A stretch of 64,000 bases of DNA, taken from the NCBI GenBank assembly GCA_964434055.1, contig CAYSSY010000001.1, forward strand, positions 5,094 through 69,093, written 5' to 3'. This document shows, in pieces, positions 48,084 to 64,000 of the stretch (within the stretch, counting starts at the first letter, position 1; each line of letters starts with the position of its first letter). The stretch comes from an uncultured Gammaproteobacteria bacterium (GTDB lineage: Bacteria > Patescibacteriota > Patescibacteriia > UBA2196 > CAYSSY01). A program made the position numbers and the translations under genes. The notes under the pieces are model-generated. The model searched no databases. It was not told the DNA's origin and worked only from the letters and a program-made list of their open reading frames with translations.

Positions 48084-48112
48084 TTGACAGAAAACAAAAA
48101 ACTTGCTATACT
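48084..48112 (+). promoter_or_regulatory. Strong sigma-70-type promoter TTGACA-N17-TATACT in a 680-bp intergenic region
   Basis: ttgaca at 48084-89 and tatact at 48107-12. No ORF follows for about 500 nt. Confidence 0.5.
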
Positions 48113-48399
48113 AAAAGCAGAACTAAAATAAAAACAAAAACAGCTAAGATAAACTTCTTCTTAAAAAATAGGTCCTTGAGAAATCAATTATAGATTCTTG
48201 AAGATTCTTAATAAAAATGAATTTAAGAAGAATTTTTTCTTTACTGTTCGTTTAGGGTTTCAATGCCGAAAAACCCCAAAAAACTAAAGTAAAAAACAAA
48301 AATAAAAAGGTAAACTTTTATTATTTATATATAGAGGTCTTACCATAAGAACGGTAATAGAAAATACGCTTGCTTTTTGACATCACTCGGCACAAAAAG

Positions 48400-48565
48400 C
48401 ACCAGATTTGTGGATAAGAAACACAATCTGGGAAGCGGACACATATTTCGAACACTTTCAATCAAGGGTTTGAGATATGTGTCCGTGCCCAGTGGCCTTA
48501 TCCACTTGGGCGCGTTACGTCCTTAAAATAACTTTTAATTGGGGCGCTAACTGCGCCCTTTTTTG
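48400..48565 (+). ncRNA. Candidate stand-alone structured ncRNA: a long nested hairpin followed by a strong intrinsic terminator
   Basis: Nested inverted repeats GTGGATAAG/CTTATCCAC, CTGGG/CCCAG and GGACACATAT/ATATGTGTCC. Then GGGGCGCtaactGCGCCC plus T6 (48541-48565). A new promoter TTGATT-N17-TATAAT (48583-48611) follows for the next gene. Confidence 0.4.
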
Positions 48566-56535: not shown

Positions 56536-57330
56536 TCATTCTCCTAAACGCCAAAAGTTCGGCGTTAATAAACAAACTAACAGTTCTTTGAACCATGGCA
56601 CCAGAATTCTAAAAAAATCATATCTTTCTGGTTCTTCACTAGGAATTAAAATCAATCCTTCTGGAAATAATGATTCGGTAATAACTTTAGCCTCCTCGGC
56701 CATCTGTGCAATACGGTATTTTGTTTCCCATATTAAATTATCTTGATCTGCTTTATCTAATTCATTCAATTCAATAATCTCTCGCCTTAAACGTCTCTCA
56801 TATTCAAACCTAAATGCGTCTTTTTTAACCAAATTAGTGAAATTTAAAAGAACGTCTTGATTAGGATTTATTTTGTTTATACCAAAACTGTTTAAAAAAT
56901 CTAACCAATCATAAAACAAAATATCACCAACACCGCCTGCCAGGTTCTGATACAAATTCATTATTTCTTTTTTTACAGTCAAGCTTGCTTGTCGTCTAGT
57001 GTTTTCTGAATCAACAAAAATAAAAAACCAATTAATGCTAAATCCATAACTTTTAAAAAGTGCTACAATTTTCGGTATTTCTCTATAAAAAACCCTTAAT
57101 TCACTCTTAAGCGGTTTAAGTCTGTTGTTTTGTAGAATCTTTCTCTCGTCTAATGACTTGGTCACACAACACTGTGTTAAAATATTAACCGCCATTCTTT
57201 TGTTCCAACAATCAAATAAATAATCCTTGGCCCTATTACCGACTCTTAATACACCTTTTGGTCGTAGTTTTAAACTACTATTAACCTCTTGTAGTTTTTT
57301 AACAAAAGCTTCAATTAAACTGGCTGCCAT
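56536..57330 (-). CDS. Hypothetical protein
   Basis: The track start is TTG 57345; ATG 57330 has a GGAGGAG SD. No recognised motif. Confidence 0.4.
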   Translation of the reverse strand: MAASLIEAFVKKLQEVNSSLKLRPKGVLRVGNRAKDYLFDCWNKRMAVNILTQCCVTKSLDERKILQNNRLKPLKSELRVFYREIPKIVALFKSYGFSINWFFIFVDSENTRRQASLTVKKEIMNLYQNLAGGVGDILFYDWLDFLNSFGINKINPNQDVLLNFTNLVKKDAFRFEYERRLRREIIELNELDKADQDNLIWETKYRIAQMAEEAKVITESLFPEGLILIPSEEPERYDFFRILVPWFKELLVCLLTPNFWRLGE

Positions 57331-57411
57331 GATTCTCTCCTCCAATTATAATTAAAAAAGAAAAATTCCTTCTCTTTTTGGGAAGGAATACAAAATTGAA
57401 CTTCATAATAC

Positions 57412-57729
57412 TCAAATACTTCCCAAATAGTTAAGTTTTGGGTGATGTTTGCTGTGTGCCCTATTTAAAATTAACTGATACCCGCCTGTACCTTTTTTTA
57501 GCCATTTAGCAATTCTTGCTACGGTGGTGGAACTTAAACCAGTTTCTTTTTCGATGGTAGAATAGGGAATTTTATTATTAAGTAATTGTGCTGTTGCCCA
57601 GCGTTTGCTAAATTCTATTATCTCTTTCTCGGTCAATAGATCACGTAAAAAAGCTTTTGCTTCATCGTAATTAGCAAGTAATAGTATTGCGTTATATAAA
57701 TTGTCTATTCTAATGTTTTCTTCTAACAT
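57412..57729 (-). CDS. YerC/YecD (TrpR-related) small DNA-binding protein
   Basis: LLANYDEAKAFLRDLLTEKEIIEFSKRWATAQLL...STIEKETGLSSTTVARIAKWLKKG. Confidence 0.65.
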   Translation of the reverse strand: MLEENIRIDNLYNAILLLANYDEAKAFLRDLLTEKEIIEFSKRWATAQLLNNKIPYSTIEKETGLSSTTVARIAKWLKKGTGGYQLILNRAHSKHHPKLNYLGSI

Positions 57730-57841
57730 AACTATACTTTATTTGACTAAAGTACTTTACCTAAATAAAGTATATATTATAGCTAATAGGTTGTCAAGTA
57801 TATAGAGGAATATCCCCATAAATAATAACTTATCCTCAATT

Positions 57842-57861
57842 TGTCTACATTGGTGTAGACA
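57842..57861. repeat. Perfect palindrome TGTCTACA-ttgg-TGTAGACA followed by a T-run (copy 1 of 2)
   Basis: Seen directly in the sequence. Copy 2 is at 58195-58214. Confidence 0.8.
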
Positions 57862-58194
57862 TTTTTATCAACAAAAGGCATCTATTGTCAGTTTCCACAT
57901 GGAAACTCACAAAAAGCTTAGTACAATCAAACCTATCTTTTCCAAAAAAACAAAAGGAACAAGAATAAACCTTTTGATAAAAAAACTTTTCAAATGATTA
58001 AAACAAATAAATGTATAATTTTTTTAAATTATAACTAAAATTAGCTATAAAGCTTAAATTAACTAAAATCAATAAATAATTATATGATATATAAACTTTT
58101 TGGCTAATACAAAATTTTTTTAGCAAAAAAATTTATTTTAGCATTTTTAATAATTATTTGACTTAATATAAAATTTGTGTTTTAAAAATATTAA

Positions 58195-58214
58195 TGTCTA
58201 CACTAGTGTAGACA
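58195..58214. repeat. Perfect palindrome TGTCTACA-ctag-TGTAGACA flanked by an A-run and a T-run (copy 2). It doubles as the likely terminator of the minus-strand tRNA pair.
   Basis: Seen directly. It lies immediately 3' of tRNA-Ala on the minus strand. Confidence 0.8.
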
Positions 58215-58236
58215 AATTTTTTTAAATAATTTAACT

Positions 58237-58309
58237 TGGACCCGAGGGGAATCGAACCCCTTACCTTCGCAATGCGAATGCGACGCTCTACCAGATGAGC
58301 TACGGGCCC
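58237..58309 (-). tRNA. tRNA-Ala (anticodon CGC)
   Basis: The reverse complement is GGGCCCG TA GCTC...TCGCA TTCGCAT TGCGA...GGGGTTCGATTCCCC...CGGGTCC A. Confidence 0.8.
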
Positions 58310-58316
58310 AAAAAAA

Positions 58317-58388
58317 TCTCCTCAAAGGGAATCGAACCCCTATCTTACCCTTAGGACGGGTCTGCTCTATCCTTTGAGCTATGAGGAG
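58317..58388 (-). tRNA. tRNA-Arg (anticodon CCT)
   Basis: The reverse complement is CTCCTCA TA GCTC...loop GTCCTAA...AGGGGTTCGATTCCCTT TGAGGAG A. Confidence 0.7.
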
Positions 58389-58510
58389 TTTTTAATTAAA
58401 TCTATTTTATTAAGTTCAGTCTATCATTTTAGCTTTCTTAAAACAAATTTTTGACACTAATACTAAAAAATATTAAGCTTAAAATGAAATATAATAATTA
58501 AAAAAAAAGT

Positions 58511-58951
58511 ATGTTTAACAGTAATCTCAAAAATAATTCTGAAAGTGATTCCAAAAAGATTGAAACCTATGTTGGGTTATCAGTAAAAATTGAAGGTCAT
58601 CTTAAGTCTGAAGGTGATATTTTTATAAACGGAGATGTTAAGGGTGGAGTAACAACAAAGAAAAATATAACAATTGGAAATCAAGCCAAGATTAATGGAA
58701 ACATAAGTGGTCAAAAAATAATCATCAATGGCACTGTTTTAGGTAATATAAAATGTCAAGATCGGTTAGAGTTGGGTGAAACCTCGAAAATTATTGGTGA
58801 TATAGAGACTAAGGCGCTCTCTGTTACTGAGGGAGCGTTAATACAGGGTCAATTAAAAATGGATATTTCAGAAAATAAAGTTTCAAAACAGGATATTTTA
58901 TCAGTTCCTGGAAATTCTGATAAATTAATTGAAAAAAAAAGTAAAATTTAA
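58511..58951 (+). CDS. Bactofilin-family cytoskeletal protein
   Basis: Repetitive beta-helical core: VKIEGHLKSEGDIFINGDVKGGVTTKKNITIGNQAKINGNISGQKIIINGTVLGNIKCQDRLELGETSKIIGDIETKAL. Confidence 0.75.
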   Translation: MFNSNLKNNSESDSKKIETYVGLSVKIEGHLKSEGDIFINGDVKGGVTTKKNITIGNQAKINGNISGQKIIINGTVLGNIKCQDRLELGETSKIIGDIETKALSVTEGALIQGQLKMDISENKVSKQDILSVPGNSDKLIEKKSKI

Positions 58952-59940: not shown

Positions 59941-60651
59941 CTATTTCTCGTGTTTATTTAAAAAATAAATCTGTTGAGCAATGGTTATAATTGTTGTCAT
60001 AAACCAATACAACGCTAGACCGCTGGGAAATTTAAGACCAAAATAAAAAGTTAAAAGCGGCATTAAAAAAATCATCTGTTTATTCATTATTGCAGCCATG
60101 TTTTCATCTTTAGCTGTTTCAATTTTTGGTGATTTTTTTGTCATCAACATTTTTGCTGACCACCATTGTGCAATAGCGGCTAAACCAGCCAATATAACAT
60201 TCGGCTGACTTAAATCGATAATATTTAAGGAAATGGTATTAATTTGACCGGGGTTACCAATAAAATTATATATTAAATTAAAATTAGCAGATTTAAGCCC
60301 GCTTTGAAAGGATTGATATATGGCAATAAAAAATGGCAACTGAATTAGTAATTGCAAGCAAGAAGAAAATGGATTAATTTTTTGTTGTCTATAAAGCTCC
60401 ATTGTTGCCCGAGATAAATCCTCTTTGTTGTGAGCATGTTTCTTTTTTAATTCTTCAAGTTTTGGTTGAAGTTCTTGTAAAATTTTTTGCGATTTTATTC
60501 TCTTCAAAGATAGAGGAAATAGAATCAAATTAATAATAAGAGTTAAAACAACAATAGCCACCCCTATATCTTTCCCTGGTATAATATTATATAAAAAAAT
60601 TAATAAATTAAAAATCGGTTGATATAAAAAAGTATTATAAAAATTGATCAT
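59941..60651 (-). CDS. yidC: Membrane protein insertase YidC (short YidC/Oxa1 type)
   Basis: 236 aa. 5 TM helices. Gene order is rpmH-rnpA-yidD-yidC. Confidence 0.8.
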   Translation of the reverse strand: MINFYNTFLYQPIFNLLIFLYNIIPGKDIGVAIVVLTLIINLILFPLSLKRIKSQKILQELQPKLEELKKKHAHNKEDLSRATMELYRQQKINPFSSCLQLLIQLPFFIAIYQSFQSGLKSANFNLIYNFIGNPGQINTISLNIIDLSQPNVILAGLAAIAQWWSAKMLMTKKSPKIETAKDENMAAIMNKQMIFLMPLLTFYFGLKFPSGLALYWFMTTIITIAQQIYFLNKHEK

Positions 60652-60941
60652 TTTGTTATATAATTATTTTTTTTGCTAATATTAGCCATTTTTTTTAACA
60701 AAGGGTCATACCCGCCACTGTTAAAGGGATTACATTTTAATAATCTTTTAATTGTCAAAAAAATACCTAATATTAGCCCTTTTTTAGTTATGGCTTGGTA
60801 GCTATAATCTGAACAGCTTGGATAAAAGCGACAGCCATAAAAAGGAAAAATGTGTTTAAGTGGACCATGATCAAATGATAAAGTTTTTTGATAAAATACA
60901 ATAAGCATTAAAAAAAAACTTCTAACGGGATTCTTTTTCAT
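60648..60941 (-). CDS. yidD: Membrane protein insertion efficiency factor YidD
   Basis: FYQKTLSFDHGPLKHIFPFYGCRFYPSCSDYSYQAI. Confidence 0.85.
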   Translation of the reverse strand: MKKNPVRSFFLMLIVFYQKTLSFDHGPLKHIFPFYGCRFYPSCSDYSYQAITKKGLILGIFLTIKRLLKCNPFNSGGYDPLLKKMANISKKNNYITK

Positions 60942-61266
60942 TTTTTATAATTTTATTCAATAATTCGTTCAGTTTTTGTGTTTGCTCTTTTTGTGAATAA
61001 TTTAAACATTTTTTTCTTGCAATCACTAGATACAACCCTTCACCAATGTGAGACAAATTGGCTTTTATGTTTTTTTTAATTTGTCTTCTAATTTTGTTGC
61101 GCACTGTTGAAAGACCGCTAATTTTGTTAGAAATTATAATGCCAAATTTTTTTTTCTTATCTGCTTGTCGGAATTTTACAAAAAAAGCTTCATTTTTATA
61201 AACTTTGCTTGATGTAAATTTTAAAAAATCACTTTTGGAAATTAAGCGACTTTCTTTTTTAAGCAT
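60922..61266 (-). CDS. rnpA: Ribonuclease P protein component
   Basis: KKKFGIIISNKISGLSTVRNKIRRQIK, in the rpmH-rnpA context. The track start is TTG 61275; ATG 61266 was used. Confidence 0.75.
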   Translation of the reverse strand: MLKKESRLISKSDFLKFTSSKVYKNEAFFVKFRQADKKKKFGIIISNKISGLSTVRNKIRRQIKKNIKANLSHIGEGLYLVIARKKCLNYSQKEQTQKLNELLNKIIKNEKESR

Positions 61267-61288
61267 AGTAGACAAAAATTCTATTAAT

Positions 61289-61426
61289 CTATACCGCTAA
61301 TTTAACCCTCTTCTTGAAGCGCCTCCCTTTAATAACCTTGGCTCCGTTTTTTGTACTCATGCGAACTAAAAAACCGTGTGTTTTTTGTCTTTTTCTCTTG
61401 TTTGGTTGGTATGTTCTTTTTGGCAT
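61289..61426 (-). CDS. rpmH: 50S ribosomal protein L34 (45 aa; below the ORF-track threshold)
   Basis: Hand-translated as [45 protein letters not shown], the canonical L34. Confidence 0.9.
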
Positions 61427-61624: not shown

Positions 61625-62992
61625 ATGAATCCAGAACAACTTTGGCAAACAACCCTTGGTGAGCTTGAGTTAATGATTTCTAAAGCTAATTTTACTACAT
61701 GGTTTAAAAATACTTATGTCGCCTCTTGGGAAAAATCAAAAATTATTATTGGCGTTCCCAATACATTTACCAAAGCGTGGCTTGAGAAAAAATATCATGG
61801 CTATATTTATAAGGCTTTACAAAATTCTTCAAAAGGTGAGATAAAAGAGATTATTTATAAGGTTGAGATAAAAAAACCGCAAAATAATATTCTTGTTAAT
61901 AACTCAAGTGTTGTTACAAATAGCGTTTCGGTGTCTGAGTCTGGTGTTCAATTAAATAATTTTGGCTTAAATAATTACTATACTTTTAATAAATTTATAG
62001 TTGGTAAGGGTAATGAATTGGCCCATGCAGCGGCTCAGGCTGTGGCCCGCCAACCGGGCTCTCTATATAACCCTTTTTTTATTTATGGTGGGGTTGGGTT
62101 AGGTAAGACTCATTTGCTTCAAGCGATTGGTCATCAAATTACTGAAAATTATAAAGATAAAAAAATTCTTTACATTACTTGTGAGAGGTTTACTAATGAC
62201 TTTGTACAATCAATAAGAAATGGAACATCTTTGGAGTTTCAGGGTAAGTATCGGGGAGTTGATGTGTTGTTGATTGATGATATTCAATTTATGGCTGGGA
62301 AAGAGCAGACTCAGGAACAATTTTTTCACACATTTAATGCTCTACACCAAAACGGAAAACAAATTATTATATCTTCCGACAGACCACCAAAAGCTATACC
62401 CTCTTTGGAAAACAGACTTTTGTCGCGTTTTGAGTGGGGCATGATTGCTGATATTGGACAGCCTGATTTTGAAACACGAATAGCTATTTTGGAGGCAAAA
62501 CTAGCCGAAAAGGGATTAGATATTGAACTTGGTCGTGATATTATTAATTATATTGCAACAAATGTTCAAAATAATATTCGTGAATTAGAAGGCTCTTTAA
62601 ATAGAATTCTTGCTATTTACGAATTAAATAAAAAAATACCTACGATTGATGAGGTAAAAATAATAATTAATTCACTAAACACAAGAGCAAAAAAAACCGC
62701 CATAACCTGCAAATATTTAATAAAAACAGTGGCTGATTTTTATGAACTAAACATTGATGATTTAATTGGTGAGAGTAGAAAAAAAGAATTGGTGTTTCCG
62801 CGACAAATTTCTATGTTTTTAATTAGAGAGGAAATTAAAAGTTCGTTTCCAAATATTGGACAAGAGATGGGTGGAAGAGATCACACAACGGCAATGCATG
62901 CTTATTCAAAAATATCAAAAGAGTTAGAATCAAACCAAAAATTACAACAAGATATAAATTTAATAAAAGAAAAGTTGTATAGTAATTGTTGA
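61625..62992 (+). CDS. dnaA: Chromosomal replication initiator protein DnaA
   Basis: Walker A GGVGLGKTHLLQAIG. LLIDDIQF. The C-terminal DnaA-box binding domain reads ISMFLIREEIKSSFPNIGQEMGGRDHTTAMHA. Confidence 0.95.
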   Translation: MNPEQLWQTTLGELELMISKANFTTWFKNTYVASWEKSKIIIGVPNTFTKAWLEKKYHGYIYKALQNSSKGEIKEIIYKVEIKKPQNNILVNNSSVVTNSVSVSESGVQLNNFGLNNYYTFNKFIVGKGNELAHAAAQAVARQPGSLYNPFFIYGGVGLGKTHLLQAIGHQITENYKDKKILYITCERFTNDFVQSIRNGTSLEFQGKYRGVDVLLIDDIQFMAGKEQTQEQFFHTFNALHQNGKQIIISSDRPPKAIPSLENRLLSRFEWGMIADIGQPDFETRIAILEAKLAEKGLDIELGRDIINYIATNVQNNIRELEGSLNRILAIYELNKKIPTIDEVKIIINSLNTRAKKTAITCKYLIKTVADFYELNIDDLIGESRKKELVFPRQISMFLIREEIKSSFPNIGQEMGGRDHTTAMHAYSKISKELESNQKLQQDINLIKEKLYSNC

Positions 62993-63200
62993 TAAAGGTT
63001 TAATAAATTTAATATTGTTTGTTTGGTTTCTTGTTTATTAACAGTTAAAATAATTTTTATAATGCTTTGTTTAACAAATTAACCACTGATTACTTAATAA
63101 TTTTAAGCTTAAGATTAGTAAAAAAAAAGAGTTATTAACAAAAAATTACATCTATATTAATTAATATAAAATAAAATTAATATAAACTAATTATAATAAT

Positions 63201-64000
63201 ATGAAATTTAGTTGCACTCAAGAGAATTTAAATAAAGGACTACAAACAGTTGTTCATCTTGCTGGCAAAAACTTAACCTTACCAATTTTGAATAATATTT
63301 TAATTGAAACCGAAGAAGGTTTGATTAATTTGTCGGCAACAAATTTAGAGATCGGTATAAAAATAAGTGTTAGAGGAAAAGTTTTAGAGCCGGGAAAAAT
63401 AACAATTCCCGCCAAAACAATTAGTGATTATGTTTCGCTGCTACCAAAAGAAAAAATTGATATTAGTTTAGAAAAAGATATTTTGTTTTTAGAGTGTTTG
63501 AATAATAAAACTAAAATTAAAGGGGTTTCAGCTGAGGATTTTCCATTAATTCCAGTTTTGAAACAAAATTATGGATATGTGTTAAATAAAGAAGATTTAA
63601 AGATCGCAATAAATAAAACATTAATTTCTTGTAGTGTTGATGACACCAGGCCAGAGATTAGTGGTGTTTTATTTGCCGCAACAGACGACACACTAAAATT
63701 AGTAGCCACAGACAGTTTTAGGTTGGCTGAAAAAAAAATAAAAATTAAAAATAAAATTGATAGTGAAAACAAAATTGTTGTGCCCTTAAAAACACTTAAT
63801 GAACTTCTAAGAATTATTGATAATAGTGAAACGAGCGAAATAAAAGTGTTTTTAGAGGAAAATCAAATTATGTTTAAACAGGAAGAAATATTATTAATTT
63901 CAAGATTAATTGACGGTCAGTTTCCTGATTATGAACCGATAATACCAACAACTTATAAAACAAAAATAGAAATAAACAAAGAAGAAATAATTAAAGCTGT
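63201..64000 (+). CDS. dnaN: DNA polymerase III beta sliding clamp, 3'-truncated by the window edge
   Basis: MKFSCTQENLNKGLQTVVHLAGKNLTLPILNNILIETEEGLINLSATNLEIGI... The ORF is open to the window end, so it is absent from the track. Confidence 0.85.
   Translation, partial: MKFSCTQENLNKGLQTVVHLAGKNLTLPILNNILIETEEGLINLSATNLEIGIKISVRGKVLEPGKITIPAKTISDYVSLLPKEKIDISLEKDILFLECLNNKTKIKGVSAEDFPLIPVLKQNYGYVLNKEDLKIAINKTLISCSVDDTRPEISGVLFAATDDTLKLVATDSFRLAEKKIKIKNKIDSENKIVVPLKTLNELLRIIDNSETSEIKVFLEENQIMFKQEEILLISRLIDGQFPDYEPIIPTTYKTKIEINKEEIIKA

Follow-up and report, generated by a model that had tools for sequence, protein, structure and literature searches.

The stretch of DNA analysed here, 64 kb of contig CAYSSY010000001.1 from an uncultured member of the Patescibacteria (hereafter, the window), contains two perfect copies of a 20-bp palindrome, TGTCTACA-N4-TGTAGACA, in a 781-bp gap free of open reading frames (ORFs) that also holds a tRNA-Arg/tRNA-Ala pair. 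We propose, with a probability of roughly 0.6, that this gap is a chromosomal origin of replication (oriC) in which sites for a helix-turn-helix (HTH) protein of the HTH_17 family bracket an AT-rich core, with autoregulation of the HTH_17 gene, an interplay with DnaA and an additional terminator function for one of the palindromes. As judged by sequence comparison, the motif is conserved and syntenic, and it is tied both to DnaA boxes at a fixed spacing and to an HTH_17 gene. From these observations we infer that the HTH_17 protein is the binder, that the region fires as oriC and that binding has an effect on initiation.

The two palindromes, copy 1 (TGTCTACAttggTGTAGACA, 57842-57861, spacer ttgg) and copy 2 (TGTCTACActagTGTAGACA, 58195-58214, spacer ctag), are the only perfect instances of the motif in the window, and their positions, spacers and identical arms are as an earlier note on this DNA had described them. 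No further convincing copy was found in the 64 kb when up to 3 mismatches in 16 positions were allowed, the 8-mer arm occurs four times, always as part of the two copies, and none of 100 dinucleotide-preserving shuffles yielded two matches, even at 2 mismatches. Copy 1, on the side of the DnaA boxes, would be one HTH_17-family site, and copy 2, on the tRNA side of the AT-rich stretch, would be the second. The same note had correctly recorded the T-runs after both copies (TTTTT in copy 1), the A-rich run before copy 2 and the minus-strand tRNA pair, and had recognized the gap (57730-58510) as the longest non-coding region of the window, close to dnaA (61625-62992, plus strand; 3.4 kb from copy 2). 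Copy 2 begins 21 nt downstream of the 3' end of tRNA-Ala(cgc) (58236-58310, minus strand), next to which lies tRNA-Arg(cct) (58317-58388, minus strand); beyond the tRNAs come a bactofilin gene, yidC-yidD-rnpA-rpmH and dnaA. Rfam searches over 57300-58600, at gathering and permissive thresholds, returned no RNA family besides the two tRNAs.

An exact-pattern scan across one genome per GTDB species listed at least 119 loci with the motif, for a chance expectation that we estimate at about 140 matches (596 Gb / 4^16). Many of the listed matches are scattered singles, consistent with chance, and about 16 (spacer AAAT/ATTT) belong to a single coding region that is conserved in Bacteroidota. Approximately 30 form a distinct class, defined by a non-coding, AT-rich context and the spacers CTGG, CTAG, TTGG, TTAG or ATAG, and hosted by Patescibacteria (Uhrbacteria, Falkowbacteria, Kuenenbacteria, Saccharibacteria, UBA2196 and other bacterial metagenome-assembled genomes, or MAGs). 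The motif is also present near position 676,393 of OZ246400.1, a complete CPR chromosome. The same 16 arm bases are kept across Kuenenbacteria, UBA2196, Uhrbacteria, Falkowbacteria and Saccharibacteria; because 16 intergenic positions would not otherwise remain identical at such divergence, the palindrome appears to be under selection. These palindromes are very probably conserved, sequence-specific binding sites for a protein.

tBLASTn searches with the proteins of the window recovered its gene order at four loci, L032, L098 (UBA2196), L103 and L119 (Kuenenbacteria). All share dnaA/rpmH/rnpA/yidD/yidC/hyp252/bactofilin/tRNA-Arg(cct)/tRNA-Ala(cgc), followed by the palindrome or palindromes. 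Protein identity to the window over these loci ranges from 28 to 73% (73% for TrmB in L032, 58% for DnaA in L098), and the retention of the palindromes at a syntenic place across this divergence is incompatible with the recent insertion of an element. L013, L112, L036, L042, L043 and L051 also have the tRNA-Arg(cct)/tRNA-Ala(cgc) pair no more than 1 kb away from the palindrome, and the tRNA flank of the palindrome/DnaA-box region is kept in at least 11 genomes. A five-way alignment outlined a common layout consisting of the tRNA, a palindrome/terminator, 300-400 bp of AT-rich DNA, a parS-like site and a palindrome followed by AAN and TGTGKATAAG ... TTTTGGTGGATAAC. The tRNA-proximal palindrome occupies an equivalent position in L119, L032 and L043, and the parS-like palindromes of the relatives include TGTTCCACATGGAACA of L103 and, with a single mismatch to the parS consensus, TGTTCCACGTGGAACA of L098.

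The clustering of DnaA boxes is clear in syntenic relatives. In L119, tRNA-Ala is followed by a palindrome (TTGG), an AT-rich stretch of about 400 bp containing direct repeats, a second palindrome (CTGG) and a degenerate one. The CTGG palindrome is followed by aaT-TGTGGAAAA and TGGTGGATAA, and the degenerate one by aaT-TGTGGATAA and TGGTGGATAA, so that four DnaA boxes, all oriented alike, are interspersed with palindromes. Three perfect boxes were identified in L111 and three boxes in L013/L112. The composite of DnaA box, 3 nt and palindrome, always with this spacing, is present in the window, in two copies in each of L032, L103, L098 and L119, and as a single copy in L036. Around 24 non-promoter palindromes of the type found in the Candidate Phyla Radiation (CPR), drawn from 16 loci, 23 DnaA boxes with at most 1 mismatch lie within 50 bp, against 1.76 expected (13-fold, p = 3e-18). 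Seven of them show a gap of exactly 3 nt and point toward the palindrome, and no enrichment was detected around 92 unrelated pattern matches.

In the window, a DnaA-box-like 9-mer that had escaped the earlier note, TTATCCTCA (57830-57838, plus strand, 1 mismatch), lies 3 bp from copy 1, with an offset and orientation relative to the palindrome matched in five other genomes. Another, TTATCAACA (57865-57873, plus strand, 1 mismatch), lies 3 bp beyond the other side of copy 1; it had been reported before, one base off. The remaining members of the set all carry 2 mismatches and comprise a degenerate ATATCCCCA (57810-57818, plus strand) in the place of the relatives' second box TTATCCACC, GTTTCCACA at 57891 (plus strand) and a 9-mer at 57938 (plus strand), so that the set spans 57810-57946 in a single orientation. 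As a cluster of TTATCCACA-like boxes it is weak in the window itself, and it accounts for the top DnaA-box score (57801-58100) among all 300-bp segments of the 64 kb. The box at 57891 is overlapped by the palindrome GTTTCCACATGGAAAC, a hairpin that the earlier note had also seen and whose coordinates we correct to 57891-57906. This palindrome appears to be the diverged counterpart of the relatives' parS-like sites, TGTTCCAC(G/A)TGGAACA. Its inner 12 bp, TTCCACATGGAA, are identical to those of L103 and its symmetry is retained. It differs from the parS consensus at 7 positions when centre-aligned, and the canonical parS sequence TGTTNCACGTGAAACA has no match at up to 3 mismatches in the window. 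We hence regard GTTTCCACATGGAAAC as a putative diverged homologue of the parS-like sites, of uncertain function.

Adjoining these boxes is a stretch of about 240 bp (57950-58190) with a GC content of about 16-18%, which constitutes a candidate DNA-unwinding element on the basis of composition, its unwinding being predicted. The 333 bp between the palindromes have a GC content of 18.3%, compared to 34.4% for the whole window, and are, together with the dnaA-dnaN spacer, its lowest-GC stretch. The AT-rich stretch carries repeated TTTTGGCTAA / TTAGC motifs common to the relatives. The AT-rich spacers of all five syntenic genomes (window 58040-58150; L119 3990-4110) contain TTTTGGCTAA / GCTAA-N2-TTAGC, which is also present just upstream of the last operator in intergenic regions between sigma factor and HTH genes (L207 5663-6000; L215 5624-6000); it could be a -35-like element or the site of another protein. 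L119 (3975-4160) and the reverse-complemented equivalent in L032 have in common a pair of direct repeats, each about 85 bp long, and an inverted repeat of 13 bp, TTTYCATAAAAAT-N3-ATTTTTATGRAAA, none of which is recognizable in the window.

Further indications of an origin come from gene context and strand composition. The gap lies 3.4 kb from dnaA, with the rpmH-rnpA-yidD-yidC cluster (59941-61426, minus strand) between copy 2 and dnaA, and this synteny is kept in L098, L103 and L119. In the spacers on either side of dnaA, no 9-mer comes closer to the DnaA box than 1 mismatch, and no box cluster is present. Raw cumulative GC skew did not single out one position, having a minimum at 43 kb as well as at 58.5 kb. 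Splitting the top-strand skew by gene strand into transcription and replication components gave a replication component that changes sign, from -0.058 to the left of 57.8 kb to +0.110 to the right of 58.2 kb, the right arm comprising only 6 kb, and a transcription component that is alike on the two sides (0.086 and 0.091). Because the minus-strand genes at 59.9-61.3 kb already present the skew of the right replichore, the switch appears to map near 58-60 kb (57.7-59.9 kb), to the left of dnaA and not at dnaA-dnaN. As a pointer to the origin this result is suggestive, not decisive. Taking boxes, composition, context and skew together, we consider it likely that the gap is oriC.

A second context connects the palindrome to a candidate regulator. 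In 14 of the 119 listed loci from the pattern scan, it is located directly upstream of a conserved gene encoding an HTH_17 protein of about 95 aa. In L014 and L096 the palindrome comes right after the -10 element (TTGACA-17-CAATAT-palindrome); in the other HTH_17 promoters it overlaps the -10 (TTGACA-N13-palindrome), itself supplying TACAAT or TACACT. Within HTH promoters the motif precedes the gene, and what comes after it is AA, not a T-run. The protein matches PF12728 (E 1e-8 to 5e-7) and TIGR01764 (E = 6e-8), and its family comprises at least 3,428 clusters at 90% identity, named only 'excisionase family' or hypothetical. Both kinds of site coexist in UBA2196 (L014 promoter and L098 origin) and in AMR_MDS_2570 (L096 and L103). 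Among the matches listed, the exact copies in each of these two twice-matched relatives lie on only two contigs, which carry the origin-proximal site and the HTH-promoter site, respectively.

As a check on bias, 80 metagenome loci were fetched using the HTH_17 protein alone, 79 of them with enough upstream sequence. A site with at most 3 mismatches in 16 positions was detected within 200 bp upstream in 57 of the 79, for a chance expectation far below one per locus, and 20 of the loci contain 2-4 sites spaced by about 55-135 bp. Changes in the arms are symmetric, TGTATACA/TGTATACA being the commonest pair, followed by TGTCCACA/CGTGGACA and TGTCTACT/AGTAGACA, and the operator type tracks residues in the HTH and wing of the protein. 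Of the 21 loci with A at arm position 4 (TGTATACA-type), 16 encode '...V[A/S/G]GRYK' proteins, most of them also with 'N.QT'; of the 42 with C at this position (TGTCTACA-type), only about 2 do, this type of arm pairing with Q/R-GRYK, in counts drawn from phylogenetically non-independent loci. The motif sits in the promoter of the HTH_17 gene and the operator co-varies with the protein, which together make this protein the probable binder. Both copies in the window fit the consensus TGTMYAVA-N4-TBTRKACA derived from these 79 loci, which had not been selected by pattern, with symmetric arms and T at spacer position 2.

The HTH_17 gene is divergent from a gene for a sigma-70 factor of the extracytoplasmic function (ECF) type in 39 of 46 loci, with a DUF5667 protein gene after the sigma factor, and recO lies downstream of it in L207 and L215. 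A recurrent cluster (L124-L203, L207-L222) is composed of an unannotated protein of about 1,200 aa, DUF5667 and the ECF-type sigma-70, all three encoded on one strand, with the HTH_17 gene divergent and recO and ileS convergent downstream. The scan of viral contigs returned 30 matches, all with unrelated spacers and contexts. Given its fixed sigma/DUF5667/recO surroundings and the lack of related sites on viral contigs, the genomic context indicates that the HTH_17 gene is a core CPR gene and not a mobile one. A reverse transcriptase gene (RVT_1) beside a bAvd-like gene, about 5 kb from the HTH locus in L207 (11138-12285), looks like a diversity-generating retroelement.

The AlphaFold model of the HTH_17 protein depicts residues 1-55 as a winged helix, with predicted local distance difference test (pLDDT) values of 74-91 in 10-residue blocks, and a C-terminal tail that is not confident. 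The closest structure matches to residues 1-55 are Xis (4j2n), BldC (6ama), RacA and the DNA-binding domain of pSK1 Par (5i44, 8csh), all of them weak (E 0.006 or worse) and generic for MerR-like winged helices. A profile search of the PDB returned no close solved homologue, its sole match being a phage Xis (E = 0.19).

Genes adjoining the palindromes in relatives provide additional observations. A conserved secreted protein without a Pfam match, with a signal peptide and MTS(P/T)(S/N)(F/Y)(E/Q)I(R/Q)WD..., adjoins the palindrome/DnaA-box region in several Uhrbacteria-like genomes (L013 7398-8000; L112 7281-8000; L036 4632-5582; L051 3713-4642; L097 3331-4026). In L097, four exact palindromes (spacer ATAT) lie in the 900 bp upstream of this gene, which could be another regulon member. 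A distance of 76 bp separates the end of trmB from the first palindrome in L032 (5766-5860), the nearest of the recovered relatives. Compared to L032, the window carries two extra minus-strand genes at 56536-57729, encoding a 269-aa protein without a Pfam match and YerC, and one DnaA-box/palindrome module in place of two, a difference that points to an indel at the border of the putative origin. Four independent assemblies of the same strain as the window (L001-L004), 100% identical, all break within the yerC-tRNA spacer, with the L003 contig ending inside copy 2, which fits assembly-graph breaks at hairpins or low-complexity AT-rich DNA; being identical and ending in this region, they added nothing to the comparison. 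The population occurs in samples SRR27676563, SRR27676565, SRR12133404 and JGI 3300028622.

A second DnaA-box score peak, at 48.2-48.7 kb, was rejected as an origin: its two 9-mers, TGTGGATAA at 48409 and TTATCCACT at 48498, are mutually complementary, as in an RNA helix, and lie in an apparent structured RNA. The segment concerned (48085-48565, plus strand), the second-longest ORF-free gap in the window, presents a promoter-like TTGACA-17-TATACT (48085-48113) followed by about 450 nt and a GC-rich hairpin with a T-run (GGGGCGCtaactGCGCCCttttttg). No Rfam match was obtained for it, even at E <=1, and we regard it as a candidate unannotated structured non-coding RNA. Outside the Patescibacteria, MAGs of Chitinophagales/Catalimonadaceae contain tandem or clustered TGTCTACA-AATT/ATTT-TGTAGACA arrays with extra TGTCTACA half-sites (L070 2380-2520; L068 1840-1910 and 5150-5220; L088 6290-6340), an unrelated repeat family with the same arm.

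Several observations weigh against an oriC with bracketing HTH_17 sites. The tRNA-proximal palindrome is missing in L098 and L103, and bracketing is hence not universal. The DnaA-box cluster of the window is weak, with two boxes at 1 mismatch and the others at 2; the class of non-promoter CPR-type loci behind the enrichment was delimited after some of the boxes had already been seen; and the skew result rests on 375 G+C bases of right-side minus-strand genes. The dnaA-dnaN spacer (62993-63201), the classical position of an origin, is equally AT-rich, and in L013, L112, L036, L051 and L097 the palindrome/DnaA-box region could be an ordinary promoter-regulatory region. Homologues of the HTH_17 gene, the sigma factor, DUF5667 and recO are all absent from the 64 kb, and the presence of the HTH_17 protein in this organism is inferred from its relatives. 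Two proteins considered as its HTH gene product, P0141 and P0143, were discarded for having no samples in common with the contigs of the window.

The serious rival to this proposal is an ordinary control region, in which the HTH protein and DnaA would act as transcription factors on the flanking genes (yerC and/or the tRNA operon) and the true origin would be the dnaA-dnaN spacer, itself equally AT-rich. The gap is flanked by yerC (57412-57729, minus strand; YerC/TrpR-like, PF01371, TIGR02531), 113 bp from copy 1, and its sigma-70-like promoter, TTGACA-17-TATACT (57769-57797, minus strand), abuts the DnaA-box/palindrome module, with the -35 element 45 bp from copy 1. Palindromes with or without DnaA boxes upstream of the secreted-protein gene in L013, L112, L036, L051 and L097, and DnaA-box-like 9-mers beside some HTH-promoter operators (L180, L194, L165), also speak for transcriptional control. 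Yet the module is constant among syntenic genomes in which the protein gene on the DnaA-box side varies (yerC in the window, trxB or a small ORF in L098/L103, and the 3' ends of trmB and of a methyltransferase gene in L032 and L119, respectively), and it is accompanied by parS-like sites and a long AT-rich stretch. The spacers around dnaA offer neither a cluster nor a box better than 1 mismatch, and the skew appears to switch to the left of 59.9 kb, all of which renders this explanation unlikely. Still less probable is an origin-proximal centromere or anchoring role, with a RacA-like or ParB-like binder and palindromes serving in segregation or organisation. The modelled DNA-binding fold matches RacA and pSK1 Par as well as Xis and BldC, the sites adjoin parS-like palindromes and several of them, about 70-120 bp apart, can occur per locus; but the fold matches are weak and generic, there are few sites per genome among the matches listed, the overlap with the -10 of the protein's own promoter is classic repressor behaviour, and the fixed 3-bp spacing suggests an interplay with DnaA.

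Termination was assessed for both palindromes, which resemble rho-independent terminators in their 8-bp stem, 4-nt loop and T-rich tail. Copy 2 is correctly placed after the tRNA operon, with a tail (TTAATATTTTT) and, with its A/T-run flanks, predicted hairpin energies of -12.2 and -12.6 kcal/mol on the two strands (-12.2 for the tRNA operon), and probably doubles as a bidirectional terminator of the tRNA-Arg/tRNA-Ala operon. The assignment of copy 2 as the tRNA terminator, made in the earlier note, is thus reasonable as to placement but does not explain conservation, given that L032, L098 and L103 have a separate GC-rich terminator hairpin after the tRNA, that copy 1 ends no gene and that the motif in HTH promoters is followed by AA and not a T-run. 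Copy 1 forms a hairpin with TTTTT on the plus strand with no plus-strand gene upstream, in agreement with the earlier statement that it is at no gene end. For these reasons, and with 16 arm bases kept across phylum-level Patescibacteria lineages, in promoters too and unlike in a generic hairpin, and the motif following no other gene in the window, we deem it very improbable that both copies are plain intrinsic terminators insulating the spacer and identical through a recent local duplication, even if a terminator scan calls both terminator-like and each has a T-run on its inner side. The rarity of the motif among the matches listed likewise sets it apart from a common genome-wide terminator, the finding that the earlier note had said would undo its interest. 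The other possibilities raised there, the ends of a non-autonomous element (here 373 bp, with the palindromes as terminal inverted repeats) or operators of the YerC/TrpR-like or TrmB-like regulators, are the least probable of all. AATT at both outer ends extends the inverted repeat to 12 bp, but is itself palindromic and uninformative in AT-rich DNA; the suggested presence/absence comparison found the arrangement kept at a syntenic site in four relatives across deep divergence, with no other copies in the window and no link to viral or mobile contigs, the 30 viral matches being unrelated. Despite the closeness of yerC to copy 1 and of trmB (76 bp) to the L032 palindrome, L032 lacks yerC beside its sites, L098, L103 and L119 lack both genes there, and the motif is carried by 57 of 79 loci of a different HTH gene. 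NrdR boxes, LexA boxes, TrpR operators (CTAG core) and McbR sites (TAGAC-N6-GTCTA) were set aside as presumably misfitting in spacing or sequence. The remaining option of the earlier note, a replication or segregation site, is the one favored by synteny, the fixed DnaA-box spacing, the AT-rich stretch and the parS-like sites in relatives.

Under the proposed oriC, the 781-bp gap would combine DnaA boxes and a parS-like site, an AT-rich unwinding element and the tRNA operon of a Patescibacteria/CPR chromosome. The twin palindromes bracketing the AT-rich stretch would be bound by a dimer of the CPR-wide HTH_17 protein of about 95 aa, which would repress its own promoter via the same palindrome. 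With DnaA boxes flanking copy 1 at 3 bp on each side, the bound protein could touch or compete with DnaA, and this contact or competition would modulate origin firing or origin organisation. The hairpin of copy 2 would stop read-through from the tRNA operon into the origin. A modulation of initiation by HTH_17 binding is put forward tentatively. More speculative, and on present evidence doubtful, is a broader scenario in which the HTH_17 protein, encoded divergently from the operon of the ECF sigma factor and DUF5667 (a putative anti-sigma factor), is a dedicated initiation regulator positioned 3 bp from DnaA boxes that couples an envelope or host-contact signal to replication in these obligate episymbionts, from an origin set beside tRNA-Arg(CCT)/tRNA-Ala(CGC), and not beside dnaA, across much of the radiation.

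Regulators sited among DnaA boxes include CtrA at Caulobacter Cori, Spo0A at the '0A boxes' of the B. subtilis oriC, AdpA at the Streptomyces oriC, MtrA in Mycobacterium and HP1021/CosR in Epsilonproteobacteria. By analogy with CtrA, Spo0A, AdpA, MtrA and HP1021 origins, the arrangement described here would place regulator sites beside or overlapping DnaA boxes and at promoters, including that of the regulator itself, with control of initiation as the expected consequence. Unlike the CtrA/Spo0A type, the proposed binder is no response regulator, consisting of an HTH_17 protein of about 95 aa with a conserved C-terminal tail (GIGQFV..WKIKN.LYSPNP), and the palindrome of 20 bp that it would recognise stands at an invariant distance, 3 bp, from a DnaA box. 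The ECF sigma/DUF5667 link and an origin beside a tRNA-Arg/tRNA-Ala pair 3.4 kb from dnaA also differ from known origins with accessory regulators. The likeness to RacA 'ram' and pSK1 Par sites (5i44, 8csh) would reside in the modelled fold class (target-normalised template modelling score, or TM-score, of 0.60-0.70 over 47-63 columns) and, by analogy, in the clustering of short inverted repeats near the origin; the motif is another one, there is no detectable sequence homology and a -10-overlapping autoregulatory operator is no feature of RacA. Membership in PF12728 / TIGR01764 and the best structure matches (4j2n, 6ama) are shared with BldC, Xis and RdfS. BldC, however, binds direct repeats head-to-tail, whereas the arms here are inverted and co-vary symmetrically, and the NCBIfam BldC model scores 13 bits on the HTH_17 protein, against a cut-off of 77. 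In contrast to phage excisionases and those of integrative and conjugative elements (ICEs), the HTH_17 gene resides in a fixed core CPR cluster, with no prophage or ICE. An incomplete search of the literature found nothing on the motif, DUF5667, an excisionase-palindrome association in CPR or the oriC or DnaA box of Patescibacteria, and amounts to absence of evidence only. An origin with accessory-regulator sites would, by these analogies, be known in kind, and the novelty would lie in an uncharacterised, radiation-wide factor.

The Patescibacteria/CPR represent a large share of bacterial diversity, with few cultured members and a control of replication and transcription that is almost unstudied. 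If the proposed oriC is correct, its succession of tRNA-Arg/Ala, palindrome, AT-rich element, parS-like site and palindrome with DnaA boxes would define, at the level of sequence, how the origin is built in a broad CPR clade, which would help in finishing genomes, in estimating replication rates from the index of replication (iRep) or the peak-to-trough ratio (PTR) and in constructing shuttle vectors. It would also outline the first candidate regulon of a core CPR transcription factor, and would link this HTH_17 factor, in a testable manner, to an ECF sigma module and to DnaA at the origin.

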